A stretch of 64,000 nucleotides of DNA from Dehalococcoidia bacterium. GTDB lineage: Bacteria > Chloroflexota > Dehalococcoidia > SM23-28-2 > RBG-16-64-32. Below, piece after piece: positions 12,998 through 63,105 of the stretch. The notes beneath the pieces are model-generated. The model searched no databases, was not told the DNA's origin, and worked only from the letters and a program-made list of their open reading frames with translations. A program made the translations under genes and the position numbers. Within the stretch, counting starts at the first letter, position 1; every line of letters starts with the position of its first letter. The stretch is from the NCBI GenBank assembly GCA_040882565.1, contig JBBEAZ010000024.1, positions 196,857 to 260,856 on the forward strand, written 5' to 3'.

Positions 12998-13049
12998 TGT
13001 GCCTCGTACCATATAATCCCTGCACTGATATGTGGGTACGGAGGGGGAT

Positions 13050-27862: not shown

Positions 27863-27957
27863 CATAGGTGACCTATGACGGGCGTTTGACGCGCGTTAAA
27901 CGGCGCTGCTAAGTTGCGGACGGCGCCCGGGCCCTGTATCCGTGATTGGAGTTCTGC

Positions 27958-29904: not shown

Positions 29905-29985
29905 CTGGGTCGGTGAGCGCCCGTCTGGACTGTTTAACCCGCCGTTGTTAAGCTTGCGTCACTCTAGCATCAACGGGGGTGTGTG

Positions 29986-31416
29986 ATGGTCCGAAAAATC
30001 CTTGTCCCTTCAATACTAGTCGGAGTACTAGCGATCCTTCTTGGTCTGGGAATGACCGGCCCGTCGGACGGTGGAGCGGCCTTCCCGGGTACGAATGGGA
30101 GGATCGCTTTTCGAGATACTGTATCCGGCGAAACAGACATCTATACTATGAACCCCGATGGTTCCGATGTTGATCAGCTGACGGACGCCGCAGGCCAAGA
30201 CTCGACCCCAGGCTGGTCGGCGGATGGGACCAAGATACTATTCTCCAGCCAACGTGATCCCGAGAGCCGGGAGATCTACGTCATGAATGCGGACGGCTCT
30301 AATCAGACGCGCATTACCACCAACAACGTCGACGACGCGAGACCTACTTTCTCGCCGGACGGAACAAAGATCGCGTTCGACACGGGTCGGCACGCCGTAG
30401 GGATGGATAACAATTACGAGATCTACGTGATGGATCTGGACGGCTCGAACGAGGAACGCTTGACCACCAACACCGTCCATGACCGTGACGCAGACTGGTC
30501 GCCGGATGGGACAAAGATCACCTGGGGGAGCGGTTCTGACGTCTGGGTTATGGACGCCGACGGAAGCAACCAGACGAACCTGACTCCGAGCGCCTTCGAA
30601 GGTGGGGATCCTGGTTGGTCGCCCGATGGCACGAAGATAGTTTTCACTGGTTTCGTACCCGACGAGCAAAACACAGATGTCTACGTGATGGACGCAAACG
30701 GCGCGAATATCACGAACCTGACTCAGACAGACAACACCGGCGAGAGAGACCCGAGGTTTTCGCCGGATGGAACGAAGATCGTGTTCCACCAGAACGGCAC
30801 CGGCGTCGTGGTGATGGATGCGAACGGCAGCAACCCTGTCACGATCAACACGAGCACGAACGCCATAATGCTCGATTGGGGGCCGGCGCCGAGTCCCACA
30901 CCCTCGCCAACGCCGACCCTGTCGCCGACGCCAGTCGGCCAGACGCCCAGCCCCAGCCCAACGCCGTCCCCGACGCCTTCGCCGACGCCGGTGGGGCAGA
31001 CGCCCTCGCCCTCACCTACGCCCTCTCCCACGCCCTCGCCCACGCCGGAGGGCCAGACTCCTGCACCCACGCCCACGCCCACGCCTTCGCCGACGCCGGA
31101 GCCCACGGACACGCCAGGCCCCGGCGAGCAACTCATCTGGGGCGACAACAACTGCTCTGGCCCGCCGCCAGACCCGGTCGACGCGCTGCTGGCGTTGCGC
31201 TTTGACGCGGGCCTGAGCACCAACACCGGCGACTGCCCGCCGATGGGCGAGGTGGTGGAGGTGACGAACGCGTCGCCGCATCCGTGGGGGGACGTCGACT
31301 GCTCGGGCGAGGTGAACCCGGTTGACTCGCTGAAGCTGCTGCGGTTCGACGCGGGGTTGAGCGTCTCACAGGGGGCGGGGTGTCCGGAGATCGGTGAGAC
31401 GGTGGTTATCGATTAA
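29986..31416 (+). CDS. Secreted PD40/TolB-type beta-propeller protein with PT linker and Cys-dockerin-like module
   Basis: Signal peptide MVRKILVPSILVGVLAILLGLG. Repeats such as WSADGTKILFSSQRD..EIYVMNADGSNQTRIT, FSPDGTKIAFDT, WSPDGTKITWGS, WSPDGTKIVFTG, FSPDGTKIVFHQ. Linker with a 17-aa repeat ([19 protein letters not shown]). Module 31138-31413. Confidence 0.8.
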   Translation: MVRKILVPSILVGVLAILLGLGMTGPSDGGAAFPGTNGRIAFRDTVSGETDIYTMNPDGSDVDQLTDAAGQDSTPGWSADGTKILFSSQRDPESREIYVMNADGSNQTRITTNNVDDARPTFSPDGTKIAFDTGRHAVGMDNNYEIYVMDLDGSNEERLTTNTVHDRDADWSPDGTKITWGSGSDVWVMDADGSNQTNLTPSAFEGGDPGWSPDGTKIVFTGFVPDEQNTDVYVMDANGANITNLTQTDNTGERDPRFSPDGTKIVFHQNGTGVVVMDANGSNPVTINTSTNAIMLDWGPAPSPTPSPTPTLSPTPVGQTPSPSPTPSPTPSPTPVGQTPSPSPTPSPTPSPTPEGQTPAPTPTPTPSPTPEPTDTPGPGEQLIWGDNNCSGPPPDPVDALLALRFDAGLSTNTGDCPPMGEVVEVTNASPHPWGDVDCSGEVNPVDSLKLLRFDAGLSVSQGAGCPEIGETVVID

Positions 31417-31506
31417 GCGCACGTCGTCGCAGACCACGGCTGCTGATGGCGTGGACGGCGGCGGCGGTCGCTGGTATGCTTGCGCCAGTCAACTCTGGGG
31501 GGAGCG

Positions 31507-32910
31507 ATGTCAGTCCTGATGAATGTGGTCCGCGCATGGCTGCTCGGCGTCGTCATCGTTGTTCTTCTACTCGCAGTCGCTGGATCCTCCACCGGCAGCG
31601 CAGCTTTTCCAGGATTCAACGGTCAACTGGCATGGCATTCGTATGGCTCGGGCGAGTCTTCCGATATCCACACCATGGACCCGGACGGCGGGAACCGCAC
31701 CAACCTTACGAATACCCCGAACGTTAGCGAAGATGATCCCGCTTGGTCGCCGGACGGGACGCAGATTGCGTACACGAGGGACGGTGACATCTGGATAATG
31801 GATGCGGATGGTGATAACGAGGCAAACCTGACGAATACGAGCACCATCATGGAATATGTGCCGGCGTGGTCTCCAGATGGCACGAAGATGCTCTTCGTCC
31901 ATCTCCCGGCAATGGGCGGCGGCAACTCAGAGATCTACGTTATGGACAGCGATGGGTCTGATCTAGTGAACCTGACCAACGCTTCCGACAGTAGCGAAGG
32001 GTACCCGGATTGGTCGCCCGATGGCACGAAGATCGCCTTCCAGAGCAACCGCGACGGCAGCGGTACCAATATCGAGATCTACGTAATGAACGCCAACGGC
32101 TCGAACCAGACCAACCTCAGCAACAACAGTGCCTGGGACCAGGTGCCTACGTGGTCACCCGACGGTTCGCACGTCGCCTTTTGGAGCGACCGGGACGGCG
32201 ACCTGGACATCTACATGATGGACGCCAACGGCATGAACCAGGTCAACCTCACGAACACCGCAGCGGACGACTACGACCCCGTATGGTCTCCGGACGGCAC
32301 AAAGATCGCCTACACCAAGTACGATGAGGCTAACGACGTCGAAGACATCTACGTAATGAACGCCAACGGATCCAGTCAGCCCAATATGACCAATGACGGT
32401 ATGGGCGGAAGGAACTTCGGCGTGGACTGGCAGCGGCTGTTGACCGCGCCCACTCCCACACCTTCGCCAACGCCAAGCCCAACGGCCACATCCGCGTCCA
32501 CGCCAACACCGACGCCAACGGCTACGCCCACGCCGACGGCGACGGATGAGCCAACCGACACGGCGACGCCGACGGCCACGCCAACACCAACACCGACTGA
32601 AACGCCGACGGGCCAGGAGGTGGCGTGGGGCGACAACAATTGCTCCGGCCCGCCTCCCGACCCGGTGGACTCGCTGCTGACGCTGCGCTTTGACGCGGGG
32701 CTTGGCACGAACACCGGCGACTGCCCGGAGATGGGCGAGGTCGTGGAGGTCGCGGCCGCGTCGCCGCACCCATGGGGCGACGTCGACTGCTCGGGCGAGG
32801 TGAACCCGGTGGACTCGCTGAAGCTGCTGCGTTTCGACGCGGGGCTGGATGTCGCGCAGGCGGACGGTTGTCCGGCGCTCGGTGACGCTGTCCTCGTCAA
32901 CGAGAGCTGA
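31507..32910 (+). CDS. Secreted PD40/TolB-type beta-propeller protein with PT linker and Cys-dockerin-like module
   Basis: ATG 31507 after ggggggag. Signal peptide MSVLMNVVRAWLLGVVIVVLLLAVAGSSTGSAA. Repeats WSPDGTQIAYTRDGDIWIMDADGDNEANLTN, WSPDGTKMLF, WSPDGTKIAFQSNRDG, WSPDGSHVAFWSDRDGDLDIYMMDANG, WSPDGTKIAYT. Module 32626-32907. Confidence 0.8.
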   Translation: MSVLMNVVRAWLLGVVIVVLLLAVAGSSTGSAAFPGFNGQLAWHSYGSGESSDIHTMDPDGGNRTNLTNTPNVSEDDPAWSPDGTQIAYTRDGDIWIMDADGDNEANLTNTSTIMEYVPAWSPDGTKMLFVHLPAMGGGNSEIYVMDSDGSDLVNLTNASDSSEGYPDWSPDGTKIAFQSNRDGSGTNIEIYVMNANGSNQTNLSNNSAWDQVPTWSPDGSHVAFWSDRDGDLDIYMMDANGMNQVNLTNTAADDYDPVWSPDGTKIAYTKYDEANDVEDIYVMNANGSSQPNMTNDGMGGRNFGVDWQRLLTAPTPTPSPTPSPTATSASTPTPTPTATPTPTATDEPTDTATPTATPTPTPTETPTGQEVAWGDNNCSGPPPDPVDSLLTLRFDAGLGTNTGDCPEMGEVVEVAAASPHPWGDVDCSGEVNPVDSLKLLRFDAGLDVAQADGCPALGDAVLVNES

Positions 32911-33057
32911 TGCTCACGCGCATCCAGCACGCAGGTATGCGCGCTTCTGTCTCAACGGCCTCAGATTTGGGACGCCAGTTCTCCGCTGCAGGGATGACAA
33001 GTTAGACACGCGTACAGGCCGCTGATATGCTTGCCGAAATCCTTTGGGAGGTGCTTG

Positions 33058-34446
33058 ATGTCGCACAGACTCGTCTTAGTTCTCGGCTCACTCGTTGCCC
33101 TGATCGTGCTCACACTGCTCTTGCTGAGCGCCGATAGCGGGCAGGCCGTCACCCCGGGTTTCAACGGTAGCATCGCGTTCGACTCGGACCGCGATGGCGG
33201 GGGCCACTTTGACATCTTCGTGATGAATCCGGACGGGAGCGACAAGACGAACGTCACGAACACGTCCAACGACGATGAGTACGGCCCCCGTTTTTCGCCG
33301 GATGGCACGCGCATCGTGTTCTATGGCAACCAGCACGTCTTTACGATCGACGCGGACGGCGCCAATCGCTCGGCGGCGCTGACCTCCGAGGGACAAAACC
33401 TGTTTCCGGGCTGGTCTCCGGACGGCACACAGATCGTGTACGCCAGCAGCGCCACCGGCGACCTAAACGTGTACGTGATGGACGCGAACGGTGCGAACAA
33501 GACCCCCCTCACAGCGGGTGACACCGACAGCGCTCCCGATTGGTCGCCGGACGGCAGCAAGATCGCCTTCACCAGCTCCCGCGACGGCAACAGGGAGATT
33601 TACGTGATGAACTCGGACGGCTCCAACGAGACGCGCATCACGAATGACACGGCGAAGGACAATGCGCCCAAGTGGTCACCAGACGGTTCCAAGATAGCGT
33701 TCTCCACGGACCGCGATAGCAATCCGGAGATATACCTCATGGACGCGGACGGCTCTAATCCAGTGAACCTGACGAACACAGCGACGTCGGAAGACCGGCC
33801 CACCTGGTCTCCGGACGCGACAAAGATCGCGTTCCAGCAGGCAGACGGAGACGACCAGAATGTTTTCGTAATGAATAGCGACGGCACCAACCCGGTCAGC
33901 CTGACGGAGCAGCCCGGCACGACCAACGAGAAGCCCGACTGGCAGCGGGTGGACAGCACACCCACACCCTCTCCCAGCCCAACCGGCTCGCCGACGCCGT
34001 CACCGACCGCCAGCGCAACCGAGACCGCGTCTGCCTCCGCCTCGGCCACCGCCACGCCCACGGATAGCGGAGAACAGACCGCGACGGCGACACCGACGGG
34101 GACAGCGATGCCAACGATTGGCCCCACCGCGCCGCCGACGAGCCCCGGTGGCGGCGACGAGCGCACCTGGGGCGACGACAACTGCTCCGGCGAGGCAGAC
34201 CCCGTTGACTCGCTGCTGACGCTGCGCTTCGACGCCGGCCTGGACGCCAACACCGGCGACTGCCCGCCGCTGGGGACGGAGGTGGATGTGCTCAACGCCT
34301 CGCTGCACCTCTGGGGCGACGTCGACTGCTCGAGCGAGGTGAACCCGGTGGATTCGTTGAAGCTGCTGCGGTTCGACGCGGGGTTGCCAGTGGATCAGCC
34401 AGATGGCTGCCCAGAGCTGGGCGCGACCGTCGCGGTCGTCAGTTAG
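33058..34446 (+). CDS. Secreted PD40/TolB-type beta-propeller protein with PT linker and Cys-dockerin-like module
   Basis: ATG 33058 after gggagg. Signal peptide MSHRLVLVLGSLVALIVLTLLLLSADSGQA. Repeats FSPDGTRIVF, WSPDGTQIVYAS, WSPDGSKIAFTSSRDGNREIYVMNSDGSNETRIT, WSPDGSKIAFSTDRDSNPEIYLMDADGSN, WSPDATKIAF. Module 34168-34443 (GEADPVDS variant of loop 1). Confidence 0.8.
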   Translation: MSHRLVLVLGSLVALIVLTLLLLSADSGQAVTPGFNGSIAFDSDRDGGGHFDIFVMNPDGSDKTNVTNTSNDDEYGPRFSPDGTRIVFYGNQHVFTIDADGANRSAALTSEGQNLFPGWSPDGTQIVYASSATGDLNVYVMDANGANKTPLTAGDTDSAPDWSPDGSKIAFTSSRDGNREIYVMNSDGSNETRITNDTAKDNAPKWSPDGSKIAFSTDRDSNPEIYLMDADGSNPVNLTNTATSEDRPTWSPDATKIAFQQADGDDQNVFVMNSDGTNPVSLTEQPGTTNEKPDWQRVDSTPTPSPSPTGSPTPSPTASATETASASASATATPTDSGEQTATATPTGTAMPTIGPTAPPTSPGGGDERTWGDDNCSGEADPVDSLLTLRFDAGLDANTGDCPPLGTEVDVLNASLHLWGDVDCSSEVNPVDSLKLLRFDAGLPVDQPDGCPELGATVAVVS

Positions 34447-34526
34447 CCGCGGCGGTGGACCTCTGCTGGACGATAGGTTCCGGCCGTTGGTATGCTCTAG
34501 GCCGATTGATCCCGGGGAGGCCGATC

Positions 34527-36383
34527 ATGCTGATTAAACGTATGCGTCTTGCACCTCTGTACTTCGCGGCGCTTGTCGCGCTGGCGGCGCTGCTCTGGCA
34601 GGTTAGCAATGGTGGCGCCGCGGCCGGCGACACGGAGCGGGTCAGTGTAGACAGCTTCGAGAACGAGGTGACCGGCGGCGACAACGAAGACGCGGCCATC
34701 AGCGCGGATGGGCGCTACGTGGCGTTTATGTCAGGCGCAGTTGACCTCGTACCGGATGACAACAACGGCATGCAGGATGCGTTTGTCCGGGACCGCCAGG
34801 CCGGAACCACGGAGCGGGTGAGCGTGGACAGTTCGGGTGTCGAAGGCGACCAGCACAGCGGCGCGGTGGGAATCAGCGGTGACGGCCGCTACGTGGTCTT
34901 CCAATCCAACGCCAACAACTTCGTGCCCGGCGATAACGACAACGACAGCGACATCTTCGTCCACGACCGGCAGACAGGTGACACGGAGATTGTGAGCGTA
35001 GACAGTTCCGGGAACCACGGCGACGCTTCCAGCTTTGGCCCAGCAGCGATCAGCGCGGACGGCCGCTACGTCGCCTTTTACTCCGGTGCCACCAATCTCG
35101 TGACCGGTGATATGAACGACGTGTATGACACGTTTGTCCACGACCGCCAGACCGGCGACACCGAGCGCGTGAGCGTCGACGGCTCCGGCGACGAGGGCGA
35201 TTTCAACACCTTCGGACCCACCATCAGCTCGGACGGCCGTTACGTCGGCTTCGATACGCGCTCCGTCCTGGTGCCGGACGACCTGAACGGAGAAGTAGAC
35301 GTGTACGTTCACGACCGCCAGACCGGCGACACCGAGCGGGTCAGCGTGGACAGCGCCGGCGAGGAAGGGAGCGACGCTAGTTTCTACGGTCATATCAGCG
35401 GCGACGGTCGCTACGTCGCGTTCGAGTCGCGGGCGATCGATCTGGTGCTGGGTGACACGAACGGGGACGTGGCTGACATCTACATTCACGACCGCCAGAC
35501 AGGTGAGACGGAGCGGGTGAGCGTGGACAGCGACGGGAACCAGGGAAGCGGCCAGAGCCTGAGAAGCGGCATTAGCGGGGACGGCAGGTATGTCACGTTC
35601 GGTAGCCACTCCGCTCTTGTGCCAGAGGATGGGAACGGTTTCTCCGACGTCTACATCCACGACCGCCAAACGGGCGTCACGGATTGGGTCAGTGACGATA
35701 TCTCAGGGAACCAGGGGGACGGCAACAGCTGGGGCAGCGAGAGTGACGCGACCATCAGCGAAGACGGCCGGTTCGTTGCGTTCACCTCAGACGCCACTGA
35801 CCTCGTTGCGCTGGATGACAACGAGATTCGCGACGCCTTCGTCCATGACCTCGGTCCGCCGGCAACGCCGACGCCGAGTCCATCGCCCTCGCCAACTTCG
35901 TCGCCGACCGCTACAGCGACACCCACGCCGACGCCAACGCTAACCTCGACGCCAACTCTTCCATGTCCCGGGGCGACGGCTCCTCCGGGCGGCACCTGCC
36001 CCCCTTGCCCAGGGTTCGAGCCTCAGGGCGAGGGCGTTCATGTCGAGTCGACCTGCCCGCCCACGCCTTCACCGTCACCGTCCGGGGCGCAGATCCCCTG
36101 GGGCGACAACAATTGTTCTGGCCCGCCGCCTGACCCGGTTGACTCGCTGCTCACGCTGCGCTTCGACGCCGGGCTCGGCACGAATACCGGCGACTGCCCG
36201 CCGCTGGGCGAGGTGGTCGAGGTGGCGAACGCGTCGCCGCACCCGTGGGGAGACGTCGACTGCTCGGGTGAGGTCAACCCGGTGGATTCGCTGAAGCTGC
36301 TGCGGTTCGATGCGGGGCTGCCGGTAGACCAGCCCCAGGGCTGCCCGCAGTTGGGTGCGACAGTACTGGTCGCTGAGGGCTGA
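34527..36383 (+). CDS. Secreted repeat (propeller-like) protein with PT linker and Cys-dockerin-like module
   Basis: ATG 34527 after ggggagg. Signal peptide MLIKRMRLAPLYFAALVALAALLWQVSNGGAAAG. About nine ~48-aa repeats TERVSVDSxGxEGxxxSxxxxISxDGRYVAFxSxAxNLVxxDxNxxxDxFVHDRQTG. Module 36099-36380. Confidence 0.75.
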   Translation: MLIKRMRLAPLYFAALVALAALLWQVSNGGAAAGDTERVSVDSFENEVTGGDNEDAAISADGRYVAFMSGAVDLVPDDNNGMQDAFVRDRQAGTTERVSVDSSGVEGDQHSGAVGISGDGRYVVFQSNANNFVPGDNDNDSDIFVHDRQTGDTEIVSVDSSGNHGDASSFGPAAISADGRYVAFYSGATNLVTGDMNDVYDTFVHDRQTGDTERVSVDGSGDEGDFNTFGPTISSDGRYVGFDTRSVLVPDDLNGEVDVYVHDRQTGDTERVSVDSAGEEGSDASFYGHISGDGRYVAFESRAIDLVLGDTNGDVADIYIHDRQTGETERVSVDSDGNQGSGQSLRSGISGDGRYVTFGSHSALVPEDGNGFSDVYIHDRQTGVTDWVSDDISGNQGDGNSWGSESDATISEDGRFVAFTSDATDLVALDDNEIRDAFVHDLGPPATPTPSPSPSPTSSPTATATPTPTPTLTSTPTLPCPGATAPPGGTCPPCPGFEPQGEGVHVESTCPPTPSPSPSGAQIPWGDNNCSGPPPDPVDSLLTLRFDAGLGTNTGDCPPLGEVVEVANASPHPWGDVDCSGEVNPVDSLKLLRFDAGLPVDQPQGCPQLGATVLVAEG

Positions 36384-36451
36384 CGCCAAGCGAACGTCAG
36401 CGTCTATACTCTGTCGCAACTACCGAGCGTCGCCTACTTCTGGAGAAGACC

Positions 36452-38462
36452 ATGTTTCGTACGATCGCATCCATCGCAGTCGCGCTAATTGCCTTACCGT
36501 TGGCCTGGCAGGCCTCCGCCCCCCCCGGACGCTGTGGGTGGCCCGGTGATCCTCGTGGACACGACGGACGAAGCGGCGGTGAGCGACGGCAACTGCTCGA
36601 TCAGCGAAGCGATCTCGGCTGCCAACCTTGGGGCGATGGTTGACAACTGCGACGGCACGGCATCGGACGCGATCGCATTCGATCTGGGCACGGGCACCCC
36701 GATGATCACGGTCGCCGGCGAGCTGCCGGAGATCACGGCACCGGTGACGATACTGGGCAACACCGGCGGCGCGACGCGTGTCGAGCTGCGCGGGCCGGGC
36801 GGTATGGGCCCTGAAACCGGTCTATTTGTCGCCGCGACGGCACCGGGGACGGTCATTCGCAAAATGGTGATCAACAGTTTTCCGAACGCAGGCATATCAA
36901 TCGAGGCCGCCGACGTAACGGTAACGGGGAGCTTCATCGGCACCAACGCGGACGGCACGATTGCGATGTACAACTTCTACGGAATCACAGCGGACGCCAC
37001 GTCTGGATTGCACATTGGTGGAACGAGCGGTGTCACACCGGGGGGTCCCTGCACAGGGGATTGCAACCTGATTTCCGGCAACGAGGAAGGTGTCTTCCTT
37101 GGCACGGATGCTGTGCTGGAAGGGAACTTCATCGGCACAAATGCCGCGGGCACGAGCGCCCTCCCCAACGTTGCCGGCGTTAAGCTGAACCCGAACCAGA
37201 CACACGCGCTGGTAGGGGGGACCGCACCGGGCGCGGGCAACCTGATCTCCGGCAACTCAGAGTTCGGCATATATTCGGAGCAGGCGCTCACGATCCAGGG
37301 AAACCGTATCGGCACCAACGCGGCTGGTACGGGCGCGGTGCCCAACGGGCCTCAAGCTGCCACTACGGCGGAGTCATTCTCAACGGCAGCAGCAACGGCT
37401 TTGCGTCTGATCCCACGCTCATCGGCGGGACGACGGCCGCCGCGCGGAACGTGATTTCGGGAAATAACGGCTCCGGCATCGTGATCAGTGACGGCGCAAC
37501 AGGCGTGCAGATTCAGGGTAACCGGATCGGGACGACGGCAAACGGACAGTCGGCGCTGGGCAACCTCGCCACGGGAGTGTACATTTTTGCTGCTTCAGGC
37601 AATTCCGTCGGCGGCAGCGACACCGGCGAGGGCAACACCATCGCCTTTAACAACCGCGGGGTGCGCGTTGACGGCGGCGGCGGCGCGACCATCTCGAACG
37701 CGATCCAGGGCAATTCCATCCACAGCAACACCAATGAGGGGATCGACAATATCGACGGCGGAAACGACGAGGTCGGTCCTCCCGTGATAAGCGGTACAGG
37801 CTCGGCATTCGGCACCGCCTGCGCTGACTGCGAGATTGACGTCTTTTCAGACAGCGAAAACGAGGGGCGGATCTACGAAGGCAAGGTCGGCGCGGACGGC
37901 AACGGCGACTGGACCTTCGATGGCCCGCTGACCGGCCCTTTCATCACCGCCACCGCCACCGATCCCATCAACAACACTTCCGAGTTCTCTGAGCCGTTCT
38001 TGCTGCCGGCCACGCCAACACCGTCGCCAAGCCCGACGCCTTCGCCGACACCTACGCCGACCGCCACGCCAACATCGACCGCGACCGGCAGTCAGACCGC
38101 CACCGCCACGCCGACATCAACAGCGACAGCGGTAACGACGCCCACGCCGTCCAGCACCGGTGAAGAGTTAGAAGTGCCGTGGGGCGGGCGACGCCAACTG
38201 CTCCGGGCCGCCGCCAGACCCGGTCGACTCGCTGCTCACGCTGCGCTTCGACGCTGGGCTCGGCACGAATACGGGCGACTGCCCGCCGATGGGCGACGTG
38301 GTCGAAGTGGGCGAAGCGTCGCCTCACCCGTGGGGTGATGTCGATTGCTCGGGAGAGGTTAACCCGGTGGACTCGCTGAAGATCCTCCGCGCCGACGCTG
38401 GTCTAAGCGTCGCGAAACCGGAGGGTTGCCCGGCCATCGGGGATGAGGTGACCATCGCCTAA
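36452..38462 (+). pseudogene. Beta-helix family member with three reading-frame disruptions (signal peptide, helix body and dockerin-like module all recognisable)
   Basis: Signal peptide MFRTIASIAVALIALPLAWQASA is in frame 2 (36452). After a C8 run (36519-36526) the homologous sequence DAVGGPVILVDTTDEAAVSDGNCSISEAISAAN continues in frame 0. Near 37345-37360 it returns to frame 2 (GGVILNGSSNGFASDPTLIGGTTAAARNVISGNNGSGIVI...). At 38182-38189 a 4-bp tandem duplication (gggcgggc) inside the WGD codons puts the C-terminal module (DANCSGPPPDPVDSLLTLRFDAGLGTNTGDCPPMGDVVEV...GCPAIGDEVTIA, stop 38460-38462) out of frame. Confidence 0.7.
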
Positions 38463-38482
38463 GGTCGTCCCGGCGCACCGTC

Positions 38483-40147
38483 GTGGGGGGTGTCGAGCTG
38501 AGGAGCGCAAACCCTGGTTTTGGTACCGGGCTCGTGCTGCAAAATGCCGATGGATCTACGATTCAGAACCTGGCAGTCAACCGATACTCGATGGGCATGC
38601 AGATTACCTCCGACGACGTTAGACTGCGCGGCAACTTCATCGGCACGGACGCGTCAGGGACCATCGGTATAGGCAACGACACGGGCATCCAAGTCGAAGG
38701 CGCTCGGACAATCATCGGTGGGACGGACGGCTGGACTCCGGGCGGAGTCTGCACCGGGGACTGCAATCTCATCTCCGGCCATTCGGACCACAACAATGAT
38801 TTCAGCATATTTGTCATCCCTGGCTCAGCAGACACAGTCATCCAGGGGAATATGTTTGGGGTTAATGCGGAAGGTACCTCGGCGTTACCGAATGGAACGA
38901 GTGTCATCGTTTCCGGGAGCAACGCGGTCATCGGTGGGGCCAGTCCAGTCGAAGGGAACCTCATCGCTGGCACAGTGCAGCGAGGAGTCAGGTTGGCCAG
39001 CGGAACGGCGACAATCCAGGGGAACCTGATCGGTACGAACAGTACTGGTACTGCCACGTTGACTGCGCCGAACCCACCGTTTCCACCGTTTGGAATAACC
39101 GTAGATAACGCTCAGAATGTGGTGATCGGTGGCGGAAGCCCCGGGGCCCGAAACGTTATCGCGGACATAAGGCCGGTTCGGGTTTACCAATCGTCGAACA
39201 CCCAGATTCGTGGGAATTTCATAGGGATCGCAACGGACGGTGTGACGCAACTAGGGTTACCGGCACCCGGTGATGCTGGGGTCTGGATTGAGGGCACGAT
39301 CGGCACTTTGGTCGGCGGAATCGAGCCGGGGCAGGGCAACACAATCGCCTATCGTGAAACTGGGGTAATGGTGTCCGGCAATAATGGAGTAACCCAGGGC
39401 AACCAGATCCGGGGAAACTCGATCCACTCGAATGTCGGTCCTGGCATCGACACCGCTGACGGGGGCAATGGTGAACCGCAGCCGCCGGTCGTCACCACCG
39501 CCAATCAGTCAGGGGCAAGCGGAACAGCCTCTGCCCTCTACTGCGCCAACTCAATGTGCGCCGTCGATATCTACTCGGACAACGAAGATGAGGGCCGCAG
39601 TTACGAAGGGTCTACGCAGACGGATCTCGCGGGGAACTGGACGTTCAGCGGATCGCTGAGCGGACCGAACGTGACGGCGACTATCACTAACGACGGCGGC
39701 AACACGTCAGAGTTCTCAGCGCCGTTCACCATCGATACCTCAACGCCTACGCCCAACCCGTCACCGACGCCGACGCCGACACCAACCTCGACCGCGACCG
39801 GCACTGCGAGCGCCACGGCCAGCCCAACGCCAACGCCGACCGGCGGTCCCCTGGACGATGAAGTGCCCTGGGGCGACGCCAACTGCTCCGGGGAGAGCGA
39901 CCCGGTCGACTCGCTGCTGACGCTGCGCTTCGACGCCGGCCTCAGCACAAACACGGGTGACTGCCCGCCGATGGGCGAGGTGGTCGAGGTCGCGAACGCG
40001 TCGCCGCACCCGTGGGGTGACGTCGACTGCTCGGGCGAGGTGAACCCGGTGGACTCGCTGAAGCTGCTGCGGTTTGATGCGGGGTTGCCGGTCGCACAGG
40101 AGCCGGATTGCCCACCGATCGGGGACACGGTTTCGGTCCTGTTCTAG
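38483..40147 (+). CDS. Beta-helix family member lacking signal peptide and N-terminal ~95 aa (5'-truncated paralog), with Cys-dockerin-like module
   Basis: It opens at GTG 38483 with GGVELRSANPGFGTGLVLQNADGSTIQNLAVNRY, which aligns to an internal position (GGATRVELRGPGGMGPETGLFVAA) of the upstream paralog. No hydrophobic N-terminus. Repeats GNFIGTDASGT / GNMFGVNAEGTSALPNG / GNLIGTNSTGT / GNQIRGNSIHSN. Module 39869-40144. Confidence 0.65.
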   Translation: MGGVELRSANPGFGTGLVLQNADGSTIQNLAVNRYSMGMQITSDDVRLRGNFIGTDASGTIGIGNDTGIQVEGARTIIGGTDGWTPGGVCTGDCNLISGHSDHNNDFSIFVIPGSADTVIQGNMFGVNAEGTSALPNGTSVIVSGSNAVIGGASPVEGNLIAGTVQRGVRLASGTATIQGNLIGTNSTGTATLTAPNPPFPPFGITVDNAQNVVIGGGSPGARNVIADIRPVRVYQSSNTQIRGNFIGIATDGVTQLGLPAPGDAGVWIEGTIGTLVGGIEPGQGNTIAYRETGVMVSGNNGVTQGNQIRGNSIHSNVGPGIDTADGGNGEPQPPVVTTANQSGASGTASALYCANSMCAVDIYSDNEDEGRSYEGSTQTDLAGNWTFSGSLSGPNVTATITNDGGNTSEFSAPFTIDTSTPTPNPSPTPTPTPTSTATGTASATASPTPTPTGGPLDDEVPWGDANCSGESDPVDSLLTLRFDAGLSTNTGDCPPMGEVVEVANASPHPWGDVDCSGEVNPVDSLKLLRFDAGLPVAQEPDCPPIGDTVSVLF

Positions 40148-40156
40148 AATAGCTTC

Positions 40157-41251
40157 GTGATCACGAGACGCACCGCGGTCTTGTTCCCGACACTGGTCGT
40201 CGTCGCCGTTCTCGGCGTTCTCATCTTCACAGCCACGCGCGCACCGGGCCCGCAGCGGGCCGAAGCCGACCATCACCTGTTGCGTGTCGACCGGGTGATG
40301 GCGGACGGCGATATCCAGTACGTACAGTTGCGCATGACGACCGGCGGGCAGGGAGTCGTGGACGGCAAGCAGATCTGTTTCTACGACGCCACCGGCACCC
40401 CCGCCGGCAGCTTCACCTTCCCCGAAGACCTCGATGTAGCCACGGACGAAGCGACTGTGCTCATCGGCACAGCGGAGTTCGACGCCGCCTGGACTGGGGG
40501 AGATTCAGATTACCAGCTCACCGGACACCCTGTGCCGCACCCCGCCGGCAAGGTGACGTTCGGCGCAACTTGCGCGGCCGCGCCGGTCGACTCTGTGGCC
40601 TACGGCGCCGGCTACAGCGGTCCGGTCGAGAACCCCGCCAAGTTCCCGCAAGACCTTCCCGTTGACGGCCAGGCGTTGCGGCTTGATGCAGACGCGCCGA
40701 ACGCGCCGCGCGTCAATGCCGACGACTACGCTATCGGGGCCGCCGACTTCAAGAAGAACAACGGCACAACCGGATCGCTGAACGAGACAAGCACCCCGAC
40801 CGCCTCACCGAGCCCTACGGCGACGCCGACTGCCACGCCAACGCTGACGCCGTGTCCGACTGTCAGCCCCACAAACTGCGACATAGTCACGAACCCCCCG
40901 AGCCCAACGCCGACGCCGACAGCGACGCCAACGTTCACCGGCACTCTGCCGCCCGGCGACGAGCGCACGTGGGGTGACAACAACTGCTCCGGCCCACCGC
41001 CCGACCCGGTCGACTCCCTCCTCACCCTCCGCTTCGACGCTGGCCTCCCCACCAACACGGGCGATTGCCCGCCGGTGGGCGAAGTCGTCGAGGTCGCGAA
41101 CGCGTCCCCGCACCCGTGGGGCGATGTCGACTGTTCGGGCGAGGTCAATCCGGTCGACTCGCTTAAGTTGCTGCGCTCCGACGCCGGCCTCCCGGTCAAC
41201 CAGCCTCAGGACTGCCCGGAACTCGGCGGCGCTGTTATCGTCACGGCCTAG
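40157..41251 (+). CDS. Membrane-anchored (or signal-peptide) lamin-tail-domain-like protein with PT linker and Cys-dockerin-like module
   Basis: N-terminus MITRRTAVLFPTLVVVAVLGVLIFTATRAPGPQRAEA. Then HHLLRVDRVMADGDIQYVQLRMTTGG..VDGKQICFYDATGTPAGSFTFPEDLDVATDEATVLIGTAEF, which resembles the LTD pattern (I.EV...eyVEL.N...l.G..l.d..g...f.fp....l..g..vli). Module 40970-41248. TAGAAT box 6 nt upstream of the GTG and no SD. Confidence 0.65.
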   Translation: MITRRTAVLFPTLVVVAVLGVLIFTATRAPGPQRAEADHHLLRVDRVMADGDIQYVQLRMTTGGQGVVDGKQICFYDATGTPAGSFTFPEDLDVATDEATVLIGTAEFDAAWTGGDSDYQLTGHPVPHPAGKVTFGATCAAAPVDSVAYGAGYSGPVENPAKFPQDLPVDGQALRLDADAPNAPRVNADDYAIGAADFKKNNGTTGSLNETSTPTASPSPTATPTATPTLTPCPTVSPTNCDIVTNPPSPTPTPTATPTFTGTLPPGDERTWGDNNCSGPPPDPVDSLLTLRFDAGLPTNTGDCPPVGEVVEVANASPHPWGDVDCSGEVNPVDSLKLLRSDAGLPVNQPQDCPELGGAVIVTA

Positions 41252-41316
41252 ATTGGTGCGAAATGCTGTAACGCCAGGCTAAATCTGGCCATCTTACATA
41301 TCTGGGAATATCAGAA

Positions 41317-42525
41317 ATGCCCAGATTCTCGCTTGTCCTTACCGTTGCTATAGCGGCTACACTCGGCGCTCTCCTCTTCGCTGGTGCGCGCTCGCCCGGC
41401 CCGCAGCCGGCTGAGGCAAACCACCACTACATGCGCATAGACCGCGTCATGTCCAACGGCAACGTTCAGTACGTCATGTTGCGCATGCGGCAAGTCGGTA
41501 TGAACCTCGTGGACGGCAGTGTCCTCTGCTTCTACAACGCTGCGGGCCAGGCAGCCGGCAGCTTCACCTTCCCCGCCGACGTCGCCAACAACGCCACCCA
41601 GGCCACGATCCTCATCGGAACCGCGGCGTTCGACGCAGCGTGGACGGGCGGCGCGCCGGACTTCACGTTCAGCGGCAACCCGGTTCCGACCAGCGGCAAA
41701 ATCACGTACCGCGATGCTTGTGATTTCGGTCCAATCTGGGACCAGGTGGCTTACGGTTCCACGTACACCGGCTCAAACGGGTACGGCGAACCGTTCCCAC
41801 AGAACCTGCCGCAGGACTACCAGGCGCTGCGACTGGTCGTGGGCCTGAACAACCCTGTGGACGAACGCAACAACGAGACCGACTATGCCCTCGGCACCGC
41901 CGACTTCAAGAAGAACAACGGCACGACCGGCTCCCTGCCCAGCACCGCCACCCCTTCTCCCACTCCAGTCCCCACGCCCACGCCGACAGCAACACCCATA
42001 CCGACAGCAACATCAATCCCGACCAACACGCCGGTCGCGACTACGGCCGGCCCGACCGCCTCGGGCTCGACCCAGACGGCGGCTCCGACACCCACCGCCA
42101 CCCCGACCGCTACGGCGAGCGCCACGCCCCCGCCAACACAACCGGGCCATACCCCGACGCCAACGGCGGCTCCGACGGCCGCCGCTACGCCCACCGCCAC
42201 TGCCACGGCGCCACCCACCAGTTCGGGGGACGAGCATACCTGGGGCGACGGCAACTGCTCCGGCCCACCGCCCGACCCTGTCGACTCGCTGATCACCCTC
42301 CGCCATGATGCCGGCCTCAGCACCAGCACGGGCGACTGCCCACCGATCGGTGGCACGATTGAATTGCAGGGCGGCTCGCCTCACCCCTGGGGCGACATCG
42401 ACTGCTCCGGTGGGGTGGACCCCGTCGACTCGCTCAAGCTCCTCCGCTTCGACGCCGGTTTGACCGTCGCATACGGACCGAACTGCCCTGGGCTGGGCGA
42501 CGCTGTCGTCGTCTCTATGCCCTGA
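41317..42525 (+). CDS. Paralog of the preceding LTD-like anchored protein, longer linker, diverged Cys-dockerin-like module
   Basis: MPRFSLVLTVAIAATLGALLFAGARSPGPQPAEANHHYMRIDRVMSNGNVQYVMLRM...LCFYNAAGQAAGSFTFPADVANNATQATILIGTAAF...DYALGTADFKKNNGTTGSL is collinear with gene 40157-41251. About 95-aa PT/A linker. Module 42241-42522 (WGDGNCSGPPPDPVDSLITLRHDAGLSTSTGDCPPIGGTIELQGGSPHPWGDIDCSGGVDPVDSLKLLRFDAGLTVAYGPNCPGLGDAVVV). Confidence 0.7.
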   Translation: MPRFSLVLTVAIAATLGALLFAGARSPGPQPAEANHHYMRIDRVMSNGNVQYVMLRMRQVGMNLVDGSVLCFYNAAGQAAGSFTFPADVANNATQATILIGTAAFDAAWTGGAPDFTFSGNPVPTSGKITYRDACDFGPIWDQVAYGSTYTGSNGYGEPFPQNLPQDYQALRLVVGLNNPVDERNNETDYALGTADFKKNNGTTGSLPSTATPSPTPVPTPTPTATPIPTATSIPTNTPVATTAGPTASGSTQTAAPTPTATPTATASATPPPTQPGHTPTPTAAPTAAATPTATATAPPTSSGDEHTWGDGNCSGPPPDPVDSLITLRHDAGLSTSTGDCPPIGGTIELQGGSPHPWGDIDCSGGVDPVDSLKLLRFDAGLTVAYGPNCPGLGDAVVVSMP

Positions 42526-42589
42526 CACACCGCTTCGGCCCCACTCTCAATTGACCCCTGACGCACGCCCGTGCGATCTTGATGCCGCC

Positions 42590-44646: not shown

Positions 44647-45531
44647 ATGCGAGTTGTGTTTGCCATGTTCGCGCTGATCACCGGTGTTGTGGCTGCCGTC
44701 ACCGCTGCTCCAGATGGTGCAACTTCGAGCGTGGCTACCGATACCCCGATCGTGTTATCGCTAGGGCTGTATGGACCTTCCGTTGTGGAGCAAGGAGAAA
44801 CCGTCGTAATAATTCTGCGCGCTGATATCCAGGAACCCGGAATTGGGGACGTCGCACTGAACGTCACCTACACTGAGGGGGCCGGTGCGAATTACTGCAC
44901 GGGACCGTGGGGAATGTGCGAAATAGATATCGTGGAGAGAACGGTCCACTTCACTGGTTCGAGCCACGCGGGAATCGTCGGTGTGGGTGTGATGCTGGGG
45001 ACCTTAGGACTTGATGCTGGTCAACAACCTGGCGCAATTCAGATCGCCATTGATCCTCTGTCGATTGAGCTAGAGGACACGCAGGGGGCTCTCGTTCAGC
45101 CGGAGCTGGTGGTTTCGCCCCTTTCGATCACAATCGTGAGTCCAACTCCAACTCCTTCGCCCACTCCTACACCCGTGCCGGCGACTCCGGGCCCAACGGG
45201 ACCGACGCCCACCCCCGGCCCCGGAACACTGGTGTTATGGGGAGACAACAACTGTTCTAGTTCCGTGGACCCGGTGGACTCGCTGCTGACGTTGCGAGCT
45301 GACGCGGGCATGGCGGGAGATACAGGGAACTGTCCGGATGTGGGCAAGTTCGTCCTCGTTGGTAGTCATGGCCCAGACGGTCCCTGGGGTGACGTTGACT
45401 GCTCCGGGAATGTTGACCCCGTTGATTCACTCAGGACGTTGCGCTATGACGTGGGCCTCGGATTGGAAACGCCTGCGTTTTGCCCGGCGATCGGCCAGCA
45501 AGTCAGATTCATCGTTCCGAACTTCAAGTAA
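44647..45531 (+). CDS. Secreted cohesin-like domain + PT linker + Cys-dockerin-like module protein (candidate scaffold/adaptor)
   Basis: Signal peptide MRVVFAMFALITGVVAAVTAAP. About 130-aa beta-rich domain IVLSLGLYGPSVVEQGETVVIILRADIQEPGIGDVALNVTYTEGAG...VHFTGSSHAGIVGVGVMLGTLGLDAGQQPGAIQIAIDPLSIELEDTQGALVQPELVVSPLSITIV, which follows the cohesin pattern (v.v...v..G.tv.v.v.l....i.....l.y......i.f.g....G..g.g.l..l......g...i.i....l.d..g......g.i.i). Diverged module 45238-45528. Lower GC than its neighbours. Confidence 0.5.
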   Translation: MRVVFAMFALITGVVAAVTAAPDGATSSVATDTPIVLSLGLYGPSVVEQGETVVIILRADIQEPGIGDVALNVTYTEGAGANYCTGPWGMCEIDIVERTVHFTGSSHAGIVGVGVMLGTLGLDAGQQPGAIQIAIDPLSIELEDTQGALVQPELVVSPLSITIVSPTPTPSPTPTPVPATPGPTGPTPTPGPGTLVLWGDNNCSSSVDPVDSLLTLRADAGMAGDTGNCPDVGKFVLVGSHGPDGPWGDVDCSGNVDPVDSLRTLRYDVGLGLETPAFCPAIGQQVRFIVPNFK

Positions 45532-52977: not shown

Positions 52978-54357
52978 ATGCCCCGCCTTCAACCCATCGC
53001 CTCGAGTTTCGCCGCCTTCGCCCTGCTCGCCGCCGCGTTCTTCGCGATCGGTGGCTCCCAGGACGCGAGCGCGTCCGGCATCTGGGGCGACGCCACCGGC
53101 GATGACCAGGTCACGACTATCGACGCCGTCAATGTGCTGTACCTGGCCAGCGGCGCCGATCTGCCCGGCATCGGCCCGTATCCGGACGCGGATTGCTCGG
53201 GTGAGCCGGGCGCAGGCGACGTCATCCTCATCCTCAACTTCGTGGCTGGTCTCCCATTTGAGCCGATCCCCGGCTGCGCGCCGGTCGGCTCGTGGGTCGA
53301 GGTCACGCCGACGCCCTCCGGCGCCTCGCCGCCACCGGCGCCCACCTCCACCGGCACGCAGGCCTCGACCCCCACGCCGACGCCGTCATCGGGCACCGGC
53401 CCGACGCCGACGCCCACCGCTACTCCCAGCCCGAACACCGCGACGCCGACGCCTGCGCCGAACCAGACGCCCGTGACCTCCGGCGAGCCGGACTGCGCCA
53501 TCTTCCCCGAAGACAACTGGTGGAACACCGACATCTCGCAGTCCCCCGTTCACGCGAACTCGGCGGCGTTCATCACATCAATCGGCGCGAATACTGACCT
53601 TCATCCCGATTTCGGCACCGTTTGGGAGGGCAAGCCGATCGGGATCCCCTACGTCATCGTTGGCGCGGGTCAGCCCAAGGTACCGGTGACGTTCTACTAC
53701 GACGATTCCGACCCCGGACCCTATCCGATCCCGCCGAACGCGCCTGTCGAAGGTCAGCCCGTCGGCCAGTCGAACAGCGCCAACTTCGGCGGCGACCGTC
53801 ACGTCATCGTCGTCGACGAGTCCGACTGCACCCTGTACGAGACGTTCGACTCGCACCCGGTCAATGGCGGCCAGTCCTGGGACACAGGCTCCGCCGCGAT
53901 CTTCGACCTCAGTTCAAACGCGCTGCGGCCCGACACCTGGACCTCAGCCGACGCCGCCGGGCTGCCGATCTTCGCCGGGCTGGTCCGCTACTCGGAGGTC
54001 GTCGAGGAAGGCGTGATCAACCACGCCCTGCGCTTCACCGTCAGCGACACACGCCAGGCCTTCATCCACCCTGCTACGCACTACGCCTCCGAACTGACCA
54101 GCCCCAACCTACCGGCCATGGGCCAGCGCTTCCGCATGAAGGCGAACTACGACTGTTCGTGGGCATCGAGCGAAGTGCAGGCGATCTGCACGGCCCTCAA
54201 GAAATACGGGATGTTCGTGGCCGACAACGGCTCCGACTGGTACATCAGCGGCGCGCCCGACCCGCGCTGGGACGACGATCGCATCGGCGACCTGAAGGAC
54301 ATTCCGGGTTCAGCCTTCGAAGCTGTCGAGACCGGCGAACCCGTCATCACCGGCTAG
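52978..54357 (+). CDS. Secreted protein with N-terminal dockerin-like module, PT linker and a conserved C-terminal domain of unknown function
   Basis: Signal peptide MPRLQPIASSFAAFALLAAAFFAIGGSQDASA. Module 53083-53304: WGDATGDDQVTTIDAVNVLYLASG...DADCSGEPGAGDVILILNFVAGLPFEPIPGCAPVGSWVEV. Linker. Then CAIFPEDNWWNTDIS...HPDFG...GDRHVIVVDESDCTLYE...TSADAAGLPIFAGLVRY.EV..G.INHALRFT...YGMFVADNGSDWYISG. Confidence 0.7.
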   Translation: MPRLQPIASSFAAFALLAAAFFAIGGSQDASASGIWGDATGDDQVTTIDAVNVLYLASGADLPGIGPYPDADCSGEPGAGDVILILNFVAGLPFEPIPGCAPVGSWVEVTPTPSGASPPPAPTSTGTQASTPTPTPSSGTGPTPTPTATPSPNTATPTPAPNQTPVTSGEPDCAIFPEDNWWNTDISQSPVHANSAAFITSIGANTDLHPDFGTVWEGKPIGIPYVIVGAGQPKVPVTFYYDDSDPGPYPIPPNAPVEGQPVGQSNSANFGGDRHVIVVDESDCTLYETFDSHPVNGGQSWDTGSAAIFDLSSNALRPDTWTSADAAGLPIFAGLVRYSEVVEEGVINHALRFTVSDTRQAFIHPATHYASELTSPNLPAMGQRFRMKANYDCSWASSEVQAICTALKKYGMFVADNGSDWYISGAPDPRWDDDRIGDLKDIPGSAFEAVETGEPVITG

Positions 54358-59187: not shown

Positions 59188-59319
59188 TCGCTCGTCGTCT
59201 GATCCTGTTCAGATAGATCCCGTACACCTGCGTTATAGCAGGCATGAGATTGACCCCCGGCACGAGCGCCCCGTAGACTCCTTCCACATGAACGTCGATT
59301 CACCACACAGTTGTCCTTA

Positions 59320-61338: not shown

Positions 61339-63105
61339 ATGCGACTCTCCCACATGTTCGGCAAGACGCTGCGCCAGGTGCCCGCCGACGCCGAGACCGA
61401 GAGCCACAAGCTCCTCCTCCGCACGGGGATGGTCACGCCCATCTCGGCGGGCGTCTACGCCTACCTGCCGCTTGGCCTGCGCGTGCTCAAGCGCATCGAG
61501 GCGATCATCCGCGAGGAGATGGATCGCGAGGGCCCCGGCGGCCGCGCCGGCCAGGAACTGCTGATGTCGTCGCTCGTGCCGATCGAGTTCTACGAGCAGT
61601 CCGGCCGCGACAAGTCGATGGCCGAAATCCTCTTCCGCCTCACCGACCATCACGACCGCCAGTTCGCGCTAGGCCCGACGCATGAAGAGGTCTTCGTCGA
61701 CGTCTTCAAGCGCAACGTGCAGTCCTACCGCGACCTGCCGCTGATGCTCTACCAGATCGCCACCAAGTTCCGCGACGAGCCCCGGCCGCGCGGCGGGCTG
61801 ATCCGCCTGCGCCAGTTCGTGATGAAGGACCTCTACAGCTTCGACACCGACTGGGAGGGCCTCGACGTCTCCTACCAGATGATGTTCGACGCATACTTGC
61901 GGGTCTTCAGCCGCTGCAGTGTGCCCGTGATCCCGGTCCTCGCCGATTCCGGCGCGATGGGCGGCCGCGACACCCACGAGTTCCTCTACCTGACCGACAT
62001 CGGCGAGGACCACTGCCTCCTCTGCCCGAAGTGCGGCTACGCCGCCAACGCCGAGGTCGCGACCTTCGTCAAGGAGCCCGCCCACGCCGCCGAAGAGCCC
62101 GCGGCGATGGAGGAGATCGACACACCAGGCCTCACGACGATCGAGCAGCTTGCCAACCACCTCGGCGTCCCGAAGTCGAAGACCTGCAAGGCCGTGTTCT
62201 ACGAGGCCGTCTTCGCCGCCGAACAGGCGAGCGGACAAACAGGCAAACAGGGAGGAACGACCACGATCCCGGTGTTCGTGGCCATCCGCGGCGACATGGA
62301 CGTCAACGAGGCGAAGCTGCGCAACGCCCTCGGCGCGATCGAGGTCCGTTATATGGACGAGGACGCCGTCAAGAAGGCGGGCTTCGTCGCCGGCTCGGCT
62401 TCAGCGGTCGGCTTGAAGGGAATCAAGGTCGTCGCCGATGACCTCGTGACCCTGGAGCGGAACCTCGTAGCCGGCGCCAATAAGCCGGACAAGCACTTCC
62501 TCAACACGAACCACGGCCGCGACTGGCAGGCCGACATCGTCGACGACATCGCGCTGGCGGCGGGCGACATGCTCTGCGCCAACTGCCGCACGCCGATGGA
62601 CGAGCGCCGCGGGATCGAGATGGGCCAGGTCTTCAAGCTCGGCCTCAAGTACTCGGAGGCGTTCGGGGCGTACTTCCTCGACGCCGAGGGCAAGCAGCAA
62701 CCGGCGGTGATGGGCTCGTACGGCATCGGCATCGAGCGCCTCGTCGCCGCGATCATCGAGGAGAACCACGACGAGAGCGGCATCATCTGGCCGCCCGAAC
62801 TGGCGCCGTACGACGTCCACGTCGTCGCGCTCAAGACAGACGAAGCGGCGGTTCGTGAAGCAGCGGAAACGCTCGTGCGCGACCTCGAAGCGGCGGGGTT
62901 GCAAGTCCTCTACGACGACCGCGACGAGTCACCCGGCGTTAAGTTCAACGACGCCGACCTGCTGGGGATGCCCGTCCGCGCCACCGTCAGCCCGCGCAAC
63001 CTTGAGAAGGGCTCGGTTGAGCTACGCCGCCGCGCGGGCGGCGAGAACGAGCTGGTCGCGCTTGATACGGCGGTGGATGAAATCCGCGCGCGGCTCTCGC
63101 GCTAG
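61339..63105 (+). CDS. proS: Proline--tRNA ligase
   Basis: [31 protein letters not shown], class II motifs ([16 protein letters not shown]; [10 protein letters not shown]), editing insertion, C-terminal anticodon-binding domain. Confidence 0.9.

Follow-up and report, generated by a model that had tools for sequence, protein, structure and literature searches.

Cohesin and dockerin modules are best known as the interacting pairs that glue cellulosomes together, and, to our knowledge, their scattered occurrences outside cellulosomes have so far remained without a functional explanation. An open reading frame (ORF) on the plus strand at positions 44647..45531 of a 64,000-nucleotide stretch of DNA from a Dehalococcoidia bacterium (the whole stretch is referred to here as the window) raises the question of what such modules do in this lineage: does its product, the focal protein, carry both a cohesin and a dockerin, and, if so, what would it connect? 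Computational analysis identified both modules, as well as many dockerin-bearing proteins and anchored cohesins encoded by the same genome. We are highly confident in the identity of both modules of the focal protein, a cohesin and a dockerin. Whether it serves to connect an anchored cohesin with a second dockerin-bearing protein is an even call, and we lean slightly towards the explanation taken as a whole, a two-module connector in a non-cellulosomal cohesin-dockerin system.

The ORF begins with ATG and encodes 294 residues. An identical product was called in NCBI assembly GCA_040876785.1 (contig JBBDPA010000003.1), and the Logan assemblies SRR27977661 and SRR27977662 both have a version starting six residues later; relatives of the protein and another protein of GCA_040876785.1 are labeled Dehalococcoidia bacterium. 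A preliminary description, made from the nucleotide sequence by a model, had listed a signal peptide, an all-beta domain, a Pro/Thr-rich linker and a dockerin-like module, and these four parts are all present in the ORF (Table 1). Residues 1-21 contain one basic residue and then 19 hydrophobic residues (mean Kyte-Doolittle value 2.4), with V-T-A ahead of the likely cleavage site, and on this pattern the signal peptide would be cleaved and the protein secreted.

The N-terminal domain is predicted to be a divergent cohesin

A homolog search with the full-length protein brought back its C-terminal module alone. An exhaustive phmmer search, in which residues 22-165 were used as the query against 1.84 billion representative proteins, yielded 16 relatives of the N-terminal domain (E values of 8e-8 to 9e-4), with alignments covering nearly the whole domain in most of them. 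The cohesin family PF00963 was matched by nine of the ten relatives scanned, across almost the full model, with P0055 at 37.9 bits and P0061 at 27.6 bits both above its gathering score of 24.1. In a 13-sequence family alignment that spans the full domain, identity to the focal domain is 25-34%, and the conserved features are Y-D, Cys-x6-Cys (Cys84 and Cys91 of the focal protein), TVRFxG and LGTITF. All of the best six matches obtained when a profile of this family (focal domain included) was run against PDB sequences were cohesins; these matches included Clostridium acetobutylicum cohesins (6kgc_A, E 9.7e-8; 6kg8_A, E ~1e-7) and, at weaker E values, CipC of Clostridium cellulolyticum (1g1k_A, 6e-3; 2vn5_A, 8e-3). 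A second database search with the family profile recovered further members, several of which match PF00963 or are named "cohesin domain-containing protein", and some relatives thus already bear a cohesin name at NCBI. When the focal family was aligned by hhalign with the other cohesins of the same genome, the probability was 95.6% (E 1e-8). No match was produced by BLASTP between the N-terminal domain and P0024, a cohesin-like protein with the same dockerin-type module.

Predicted structure points the same way. AlphaFold2, run on the family alignment, modeled the N-terminal domain as all-beta with no helix (predicted local distance difference test score, pLDDT, 89.3; predicted template modeling score, pTM, 0.81). 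With this predicted model as the query, a Foldseek search of the PDB was led by cohesins, with template modeling (TM) scores of 0.66-0.75 and E values of 2e-8 to 1e-5. The best match was 6kgf_C (E 2e-8, TM score 0.75), and others were Ruminococcus flavefaciens ScaB cohesins, Clostridium perfringens cohesins and the non-cellulosomal cohesin 2xdh of Archaeoglobus fulgidus (TM score 0.71 at 14% sequence identity). Unrelated beta-sandwiches scored clearly worse (TM scores of at most 0.54, with integrin domains at ~0.5 and CARDB at 0.47), the CLIPPER domain 9ifr matched the model at 0.65, and a search with the full-length model returned cohesins once more. The N-terminal domain is thus predicted to fold as a cohesin-type beta-sandwich (jelly roll).

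The tentative cohesin call of the preliminary description holds up as a case of remote homology, by way of the relatives, the family profile and the predicted structure; homologs are annotated or scored as cohesins and not as another fold. The likeness to type I cohesins that it proposed is one of topology only, in that the model contains no helix insert of the kind found in types II and III; the structural matches do not single out that type, as they include a type III cohesin of R. flavefaciens (5n5p) in addition to type I cohesins (6kgf and 4ums).

The C-terminal module has the features of a dockerin

Both repeats of the C-terminal module contain D1, N/D3, S5, V8, D9 and D12 of a 12-residue EF-hand-like loop (in repeat 1, D-x-N-x-S-x-x-V-D-x-x-D and then helix), and the full-length AlphaFold2 model has a helix directly after each loop. 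Read from its residues, this twin loop-helix is the F-hand pattern of dockerins. The focal module and nine paralogs in the window align with 41 invariant columns.

A profile made from the modules of a nine-gene array in the window (Table 1) produced a single, sub-significant match in the PDB (E 0.37), to a dockerin. A bridging profile, A6, was built from the focal and array modules, the diverged copies in the window and the modules fused to related cohesins, and all 29 of its 29 PDB matches were dockerins or dockerin-bearing proteins. The best match was 5m2s_B (E 4.4e-6), in which both repeats were aligned, and the others included 2ccl_B and 1ohz_B (Clostridium thermocellum Xyn10B) and 8ajy_B (ScaH). 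P0041 provides a further link, matching the focal protein at E 1.4e-7 and the dockerin family PF00404 at 31.4 bits, and one of the diverged copies in the window (63102-63992, minus strand) scores just under the PF00404 gathering score of 22.9. The reading of the module as a dockerin, also made in the preliminary description, is supported by the repeated loop-helix, by relatives that match PF00404 and by a profile that matches solved dockerins exclusively.

Three features set the module apart from classical dockerins: four invariant cysteines, of which every loop and every CPxxG segment holds one; a Trp ahead of each GD; and short strands located between its two repeats. Binding would presumably depend on Ca2+, and disulfides may join the conserved cysteine pairs, predicted as Cys203-Cys229 and Cys252-Cys279 in the module and Cys84-Cys91 in the cohesin. 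The group 1 dockerins of R. flavefaciens (5m2s_B and 5m2o_B), which are the best profile match of the module, have the WGDxNC start of repeat 1 in common with it but, unlike the module, have neither a second Cys per repeat nor the conserved CP-x-x-G. As had been noted, the focal module is the most diverged copy in the window: it is 51-57% identical to the nine other full copies compared, which are 58-86% identical among themselves. The first loop is one residue longer (CSGPPPDPVD) in six array modules (29626-42525), and the canonical 12-residue spacing is found in the focal copy and three others (CSSSVDPVD or CSGEADPVD).

Dockerin-bearing proteins and anchored cohesins occur in the same genome

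A motif scan and a hidden Markov model (HMM) search located 11 full copies of the module in the window, in the nine array genes, the focal gene and the gene at 59311-61293, and diverged dockerin-like copies in three further ORFs (13032-15059, 52978-54357 and 63102-63992, the last on the minus strand). The 14 modules counted in the preliminary description therefore agree with ours in total, but only 11 are full, one of them in a frameshifted gene, and the other three are diverged and dockerin-like. The N-terminal parts of the array products contain NosD-like beta-helices and PD40 beta-propellers and no glycoside hydrolase. Taken together, the focal protein and the 10 of 13 other dockerin-bearing window proteins that were scanned had neither a glycoside hydrolase nor a carbohydrate-binding module (CBM); they consist of PD40 beta-propellers, NosD-like or other beta-helices and unknown domains.

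The focal protein had been described as the only cohesin-like sequence in the window, and two independent cohesin profiles bear this out. On the six-frame translation of the window, the profile of the focal cohesin subfamily detected the focal ORF alone (E 1e-42; next best E 1.7), and a profile of other cohesin types gave no match at all.

A search of the rest of the genome, which the preliminary description had proposed, located cohesins on another contig, JBBDPA010000013.1 of GCA_040876785.1 (locus L039). Positions 229-7515 of this contig hold a cluster of four single-cohesin proteins, each composed of a signal peptide, a cohesin, a low-complexity linker and a C-terminal transmembrane helix, with PF00963 scores of 32.5, 25.1, 21.4 and 14.8 bits (two above the Pfam cutoff). 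The cluster also encodes P0018, in which a cohesin-like domain is fused to a module of the consensus type and which is a second cohesin-dockerin fusion in the genome, a thrombospondin type 3 (TSP3)-repeat protein with a transmembrane anchor, and the terminal part of a large protein whose sorting signal is FPQTGG. GCA_040903865.1 (L038) contains a cluster nearly identical to this one. A scaffoldin-like cluster of four adjacent genes was found at positions 1377-8308 of L036 (JGI 3300037483 Ga0395805_0011528), a metagenome contig from a related organism, and L037 has the same gene order: first a protein of 1425 residues with the module at its end, then a focal-subfamily cohesin with a VPQTGG sorting signal, then a fusion of cohesin and module (6564-7406) and last a cohesin anchored by a transmembrane helix.

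In the focal cohesin subfamily, too, most members are anchored to the envelope, by an xPxTGG motif, a transmembrane helix and a basic tail. This combination was seen in P0051, P0054, P0061, P0065-P0068, P0070, P0073 and P0074, and the sortase-type signal of these cohesins is weakly recognized by the Pfam model Gram_pos_anchor. Several members (P0059, P0057, P0058 and P0053) are fused to dockerins, and the architecture of P0059 is exactly that of the focal protein. The module itself recurs in arrays, with many copies per genome, in several metagenome-assembled genomes (MAGs) of Dehalococcoidia/Chloroflexota, including OY762959.1 (a 2.5-Mb chromosome), SMAG_U14484 and OFTM284; SMAG_U14484 encodes the focal-subfamily cohesin P0055 together with at least 11 module loci. 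Approximately 550 kb of sequence flanking module genes in other MAGs, searched with the focal-subfamily profile, yielded no cohesin; the cohesin genes of those MAGs lie mostly elsewhere.

Gene neighborhood and base composition

The focal gene had been taken for the last gene of the array. It is not: phnW (42551-43738) and phnX (43735-44562) separate the array from it, and module-bearing genes follow it at 52978-54357, 59311-61293 and, on the minus strand, 63102-63992. PhnW is a 2-aminoethylphosphonate-pyruvate transaminase (500 bits) and PhnX a phosphonoacetaldehyde hydrolase (349 bits), both above the NCBIfam equivalog cutoffs; together they form a unit for phosphonate catabolism that has no relation to the array. 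A gene for a NifS/IscS-like cysteine desulfurase comes after the focal gene.

The lower GC content that had been noted for the focal gene was confirmed. Its GC content (0.586, compared with 0.650 for the window) and its GC content at third codon positions (GC3, 0.607) are the lowest of all genes compared; GC3 is 0.72-0.83 in the intact paralogs and 0.72-0.88 in neighbors and intact paralogs together, and within the module alone it is 0.66 in the focal gene versus 0.82-0.90 in the others. The low GC3 of the focal gene and its location, with metabolic genes on both sides, suggest that it may be a laterally acquired insertion.

Three further observations concern module-bearing genes. The array beta-helix gene at 36489-38480 is in three frame pieces (36489-37454, 37451-38338 and, in frame +2 and containing the module, 38172-38459), which points to a pseudogene that has undergone two frameshifts or, alternatively, to errors in the assembly. 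The products of 40157-41251 and 41317-42525 are paralogous, with a common N-terminal domain of ~200 residues (…HHLLRVDRVM…DYAIGAADFKKNNGTTGSL) for which neither Pfam nor NCBIfam gave a match. The product of 52978-54357 consists of a signal peptide, the diverged module, a Pro/Thr linker and a domain of ~300 residues without a Pfam match.

Table 1. Features of the focal protein and module-bearing genes in the window.
Feature	Position in window	Strand	Sequence or score
Predicted Sec signal peptide (or N-terminal signal anchor), residues 1-21	44647..44709	+	MRVVFAMFALITGVVAAVTAA
Divergent cohesin module (predicted), residues 22-165 (structured part ~36-164), with conserved Cys84...Cys91 pair	44710..45141	+	
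Pro/Thr-rich linker, residues 166-194	45142..45228	+	pLDDT ~52 in full-length model
Dockerin-type module, residues 195-294 (coordinates include stop codon), with conserved Cys 203, 229, 252 and 279	45229..45531	+	
Dockerin repeat 1, residues 198-222	45238..45312	+	WGDNNCSSSVDPVDSLLTLRADAGM
Dockerin repeat 2, residues 247-271	45385..45459	+	WGDVDCSGNVDPVDSLRTLRYDVGL
Array of nine genes with products ending in the dockerin-type module (putative partners or cargo)	27946..42525	+	module HMM E 1e-50 to 1e-55
Array genes 1-3	27946-29904, 29983-31416, 31480-32910	+	
Array genes 4-6 (sixth frameshifted)	33031-34446, 34455-36383, 36489-38480	+	
Array genes 7-9	38483-40147, 40157-41251, 41317-42525	+	
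Beta-helix protein with full C-terminal module	59311..61293	+	
Protein with more classical C-terminal dockerin	63102..63992	-	PF00404 21.8 bits
Protein with diverged N-terminal dockerin-like module	52978..54357	+	module HMM independent E value 9e-4
Beta-helix protein with diverged C-terminal dockerin-like module	13032..15059	+	

A putative connector in a non-cellulosomal system

The dockerin carriers seen here are beta-propeller and beta-helix proteins rather than glycoside hydrolases, which argues for a non-cellulosomal system; the hallmarks of a cellulosome, dockerin-bearing subunits that degrade plant cell walls and a scaffoldin with a CBM, were absent from the window proteins scanned. We propose that the focal protein would be secreted as a single divergent cohesin (residues ~36-164) joined through a flexible Pro/Thr linker to a Cys-containing dockerin (residues ~197-285) of a kind abundant in the lineage. 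The same dockerin is carried by many beta-propeller and beta-helix proteins, themselves predicted to be secreted, and single cohesins are predicted to be held on the envelope, in this genome through a transmembrane helix at the C-terminus and in relatives through xPxTGG sorting signals. The focal dockerin, presumably in a Ca2+-dependent manner, might plug into one of the anchored cohesins, and the focal cohesin would then offer a further docking site to another dockerin-bearing protein. The outcome could be one binding site more, or an altered choice of the proteins displayed. Each of these binding relations, including which cohesin would bind which dockerin, is put forward as a model.

Precedent for a connector comes from the monovalent adaptor scaffoldins of cellulosomes, which consist of one cohesin and one dockerin and act in this mode (PMC4959524). 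A cohesin and a dockerin on one polypeptide that is predicted to be secreted is the architecture of an adaptor scaffoldin, a parallel that the preliminary description had drawn and that we retain, with the binding role putative; it is from this architecture and from the genomic context that we infer an adaptor function. Like the ScaC-type adaptor scaffoldins of R. flavefaciens, the focal protein is small, predicted to be secreted, and made up of one cohesin and, C-terminal to it, one dockerin, and, as with adaptor scaffoldins generally, dockerin-bearing proteins and envelope-anchored cohesins are encoded in the same genome (here the cohesin cluster on JBBDPA010000013.1, whose binding to the focal dockerin is putative). 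Unlike in adaptor scaffoldin systems, no glycoside hydrolases or CBMs are found among the dockerin proteins seen, the host is a Dehalococcoidia (Chloroflexota) MAG instead of a Firmicute, the cohesin has diverged too far to match PF00963, the dockerin has four conserved cysteines, the gene lies outside any scaffoldin cluster, and the cohesin and dockerin specificities are only putatively distinct. The best sequence-profile matches of known structure, the R. flavefaciens group 1 dockerins 5m2s_B and 5m2o_B and the C. acetobutylicum cohesin CaCohA2 (6kgc-6kgf; the best match of the cohesin family, E 1e-7), are cellulosomal components, which the focal protein is not, and identity is low, at 12-16% (structure-based) for the cohesins.

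Cohesins and dockerins are also known to act outside cellulose degradation. In the Ruminococcus bromii amylosome, the single cohesin of the anchored protein Sca2 binds the dockerins of varied proteins, peptidases included, and Amy4 carries both a cohesin and a dockerin (PMC4611034). Amy4 has a catalytic module, whereas the focal protein has none, and Sca2 is sortase-anchored, in contrast to the cohesins of this genome, which use C-terminal transmembrane helices; the relatives in the focal subfamily use xPxTGG. Non-cellulosomal cohesins and dockerins have been described in A. fulgidus (Bayer et al. 1999 and Voronov-Goldman et al. 2011, as cited in PMC4611034), which, like the bacterium studied here, has both module types and no cellulosome, and its cohesin 2xdh is among the best structural matches of the focal domain. 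A. fulgidus belongs to a different domain of life, and the repertoire is larger here, with at least 14 dockerin-like modules in 64 kb.

Several results weigh against a connector composed of these two modules. In Pfam, PF00963 was matched neither by the whole protein nor by residues 22-165, even at E<=10, a negative outcome for the direct test suggested in the preliminary description (PF00963 on residues ~30-165); PF00404 was not matched by the focal protein, an NCBIfam scan gave no match, and neither the focal protein nor its N-terminal domain matched any PDB sequence by phmmer. Because the focal protein itself has no match to PF00963, PF00404, NCBIfam or PDB sequences, both module assignments are transitive. 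A scan of 185,579 representative genomes with the N-terminal domain alone found no relative of the domain and no close ortholog of the gene. The focal gene adjoins no cohesin or anchor gene, being flanked by phnWX and the cysteine desulfurase gene. The full-length AlphaFold2 model was uninformative on cohesin-dockerin contact, with only one of five models reaching a pLDDT of 80. Finally, a classical adaptor needs a dockerin specificity distinct from that bound by its own cohesin. The loop-helix segments of the focal dockerin are 76-77% identical to those of its paralogs, and the connecting and tail segments 27-37%; since the divergence is mostly outside the loop-helix segments, there is no clear sequence sign of a distinct dockerin specificity.

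Alternative explanations

This last point bears directly on the possibility that the focal cohesin recognizes its own dockerin type, in which case the protein would assemble into head-to-tail chains, or act by capping or branching, as in R. bromii Amy4. With loop-helix segments so similar in the focal and array dockerins, one cohesin might accept both; the cohesin of Amy4 binds its own dockerin (PMC4611034), and single cohesin-plus-dockerin proteins recur in the lineage (P0018, P0024, P0059 and the fusion at 6564-7406 of L036). Three changes specific to the focal copy on helix 2 (K->R, L->T and A->V), however, could alter specificity, and the anchored cohesins in the genome offer alternative partners. 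We regard self-assembly as unlikely, though a serious contender.

Alternatively, the cohesin-fold domain could itself be cargo that binds a glycan, the surface of a host or partner cell, or some other protein, with the dockerin merely tethering it. Cohesin-like folds are known in adhesins, as the CLIPPER match illustrates, the focal gene lies away from the cohesin clusters, and all other module-bearing proteins of the window are cargo-like. The best sequence and structure matches of the domain are nevertheless dockerin-binding cohesins, and members of its subfamily typically have a receptor-type architecture, envelope-anchored and with no further domain. On this balance, the cargo role seems to us rather unlikely.

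The twin-repeat module might instead be a lineage-specific tag for sorting or secretion, or for Ca-binding stability, and not a dockerin at all. It is C-terminal in most proteins, the focal module and the six intact array proteins scanned lack a direct PF00404 match, and the four conserved cysteines and short beta-strands are absent from classical dockerins. Its profile matches are exclusively dockerins, however; the Ca-loop residues are kept at positions 1, 3, 5, 9 and 12; and the module co-occurs with cohesins and is repeatedly fused to them. A C-terminal sorting tag was rejected because some proteins carry the module at the N-terminus or internally and because its profile matches dockerins only, and we consider a tag of any of these kinds very improbable. 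Slighter still is the chance that the N-terminal domain is a generic Ig-like beta-sandwich spacer with a fortuitous likeness to cohesins, which would account for the missing direct Pfam, NCBIfam and PDB sequence matches but was rejected because the domain aligns over its full length with a family that itself scores as cohesin, and because cohesins match the model clearly better (TM scores of 0.66-0.75) than non-cohesin folds do (~0.5 and 0.47).

Implications for the lineage

Both module families and the cohesin-plus-dockerin architecture are already known, and the focal protein is a highly divergent member, both of whose modules are overlooked by standard annotation (Pfam and NCBIfam). A literature search for dockerins together with Dehalococcoidia returned only work on Anaerolineae; within the literature searched, the system as a whole therefore appears not to have been described for this lineage. 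The locus offers a compact and experimentally tractable case in an uncultured Chloroflexota lineage, with a putative connector of 294 residues, roughly twelve dockerin-tagged proteins encoded within 64 kb and a membrane-anchored cohesin cluster in the same genome. Its modules could also supply new orthogonal, possibly disulfide-stabilized, cohesin-dockerin pairs for the engineering of protein assemblies.

These modules bear on whether non-cellulosomal cohesin-dockerin systems serve general cell-surface display. As a tentative and rather doubtful extrapolation, some Dehalococcoidia might possess a large, uncharacterized non-cellulosomal display system in which dozens of beta-propeller and beta-helix proteins are held, through disulfide-stapled dockerins, on single cohesins anchored to the membrane or wall, and in which small cohesin-dockerin proteins act as exchangeable connectors, the focal one laterally acquired to judge by its low GC3, that rewire what is displayed. 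More immediately, the bacterium probably does not use these modules to degrade cellulose, and the focal protein probably links dockerin-tagged surface proteins to membrane-anchored cohesins.

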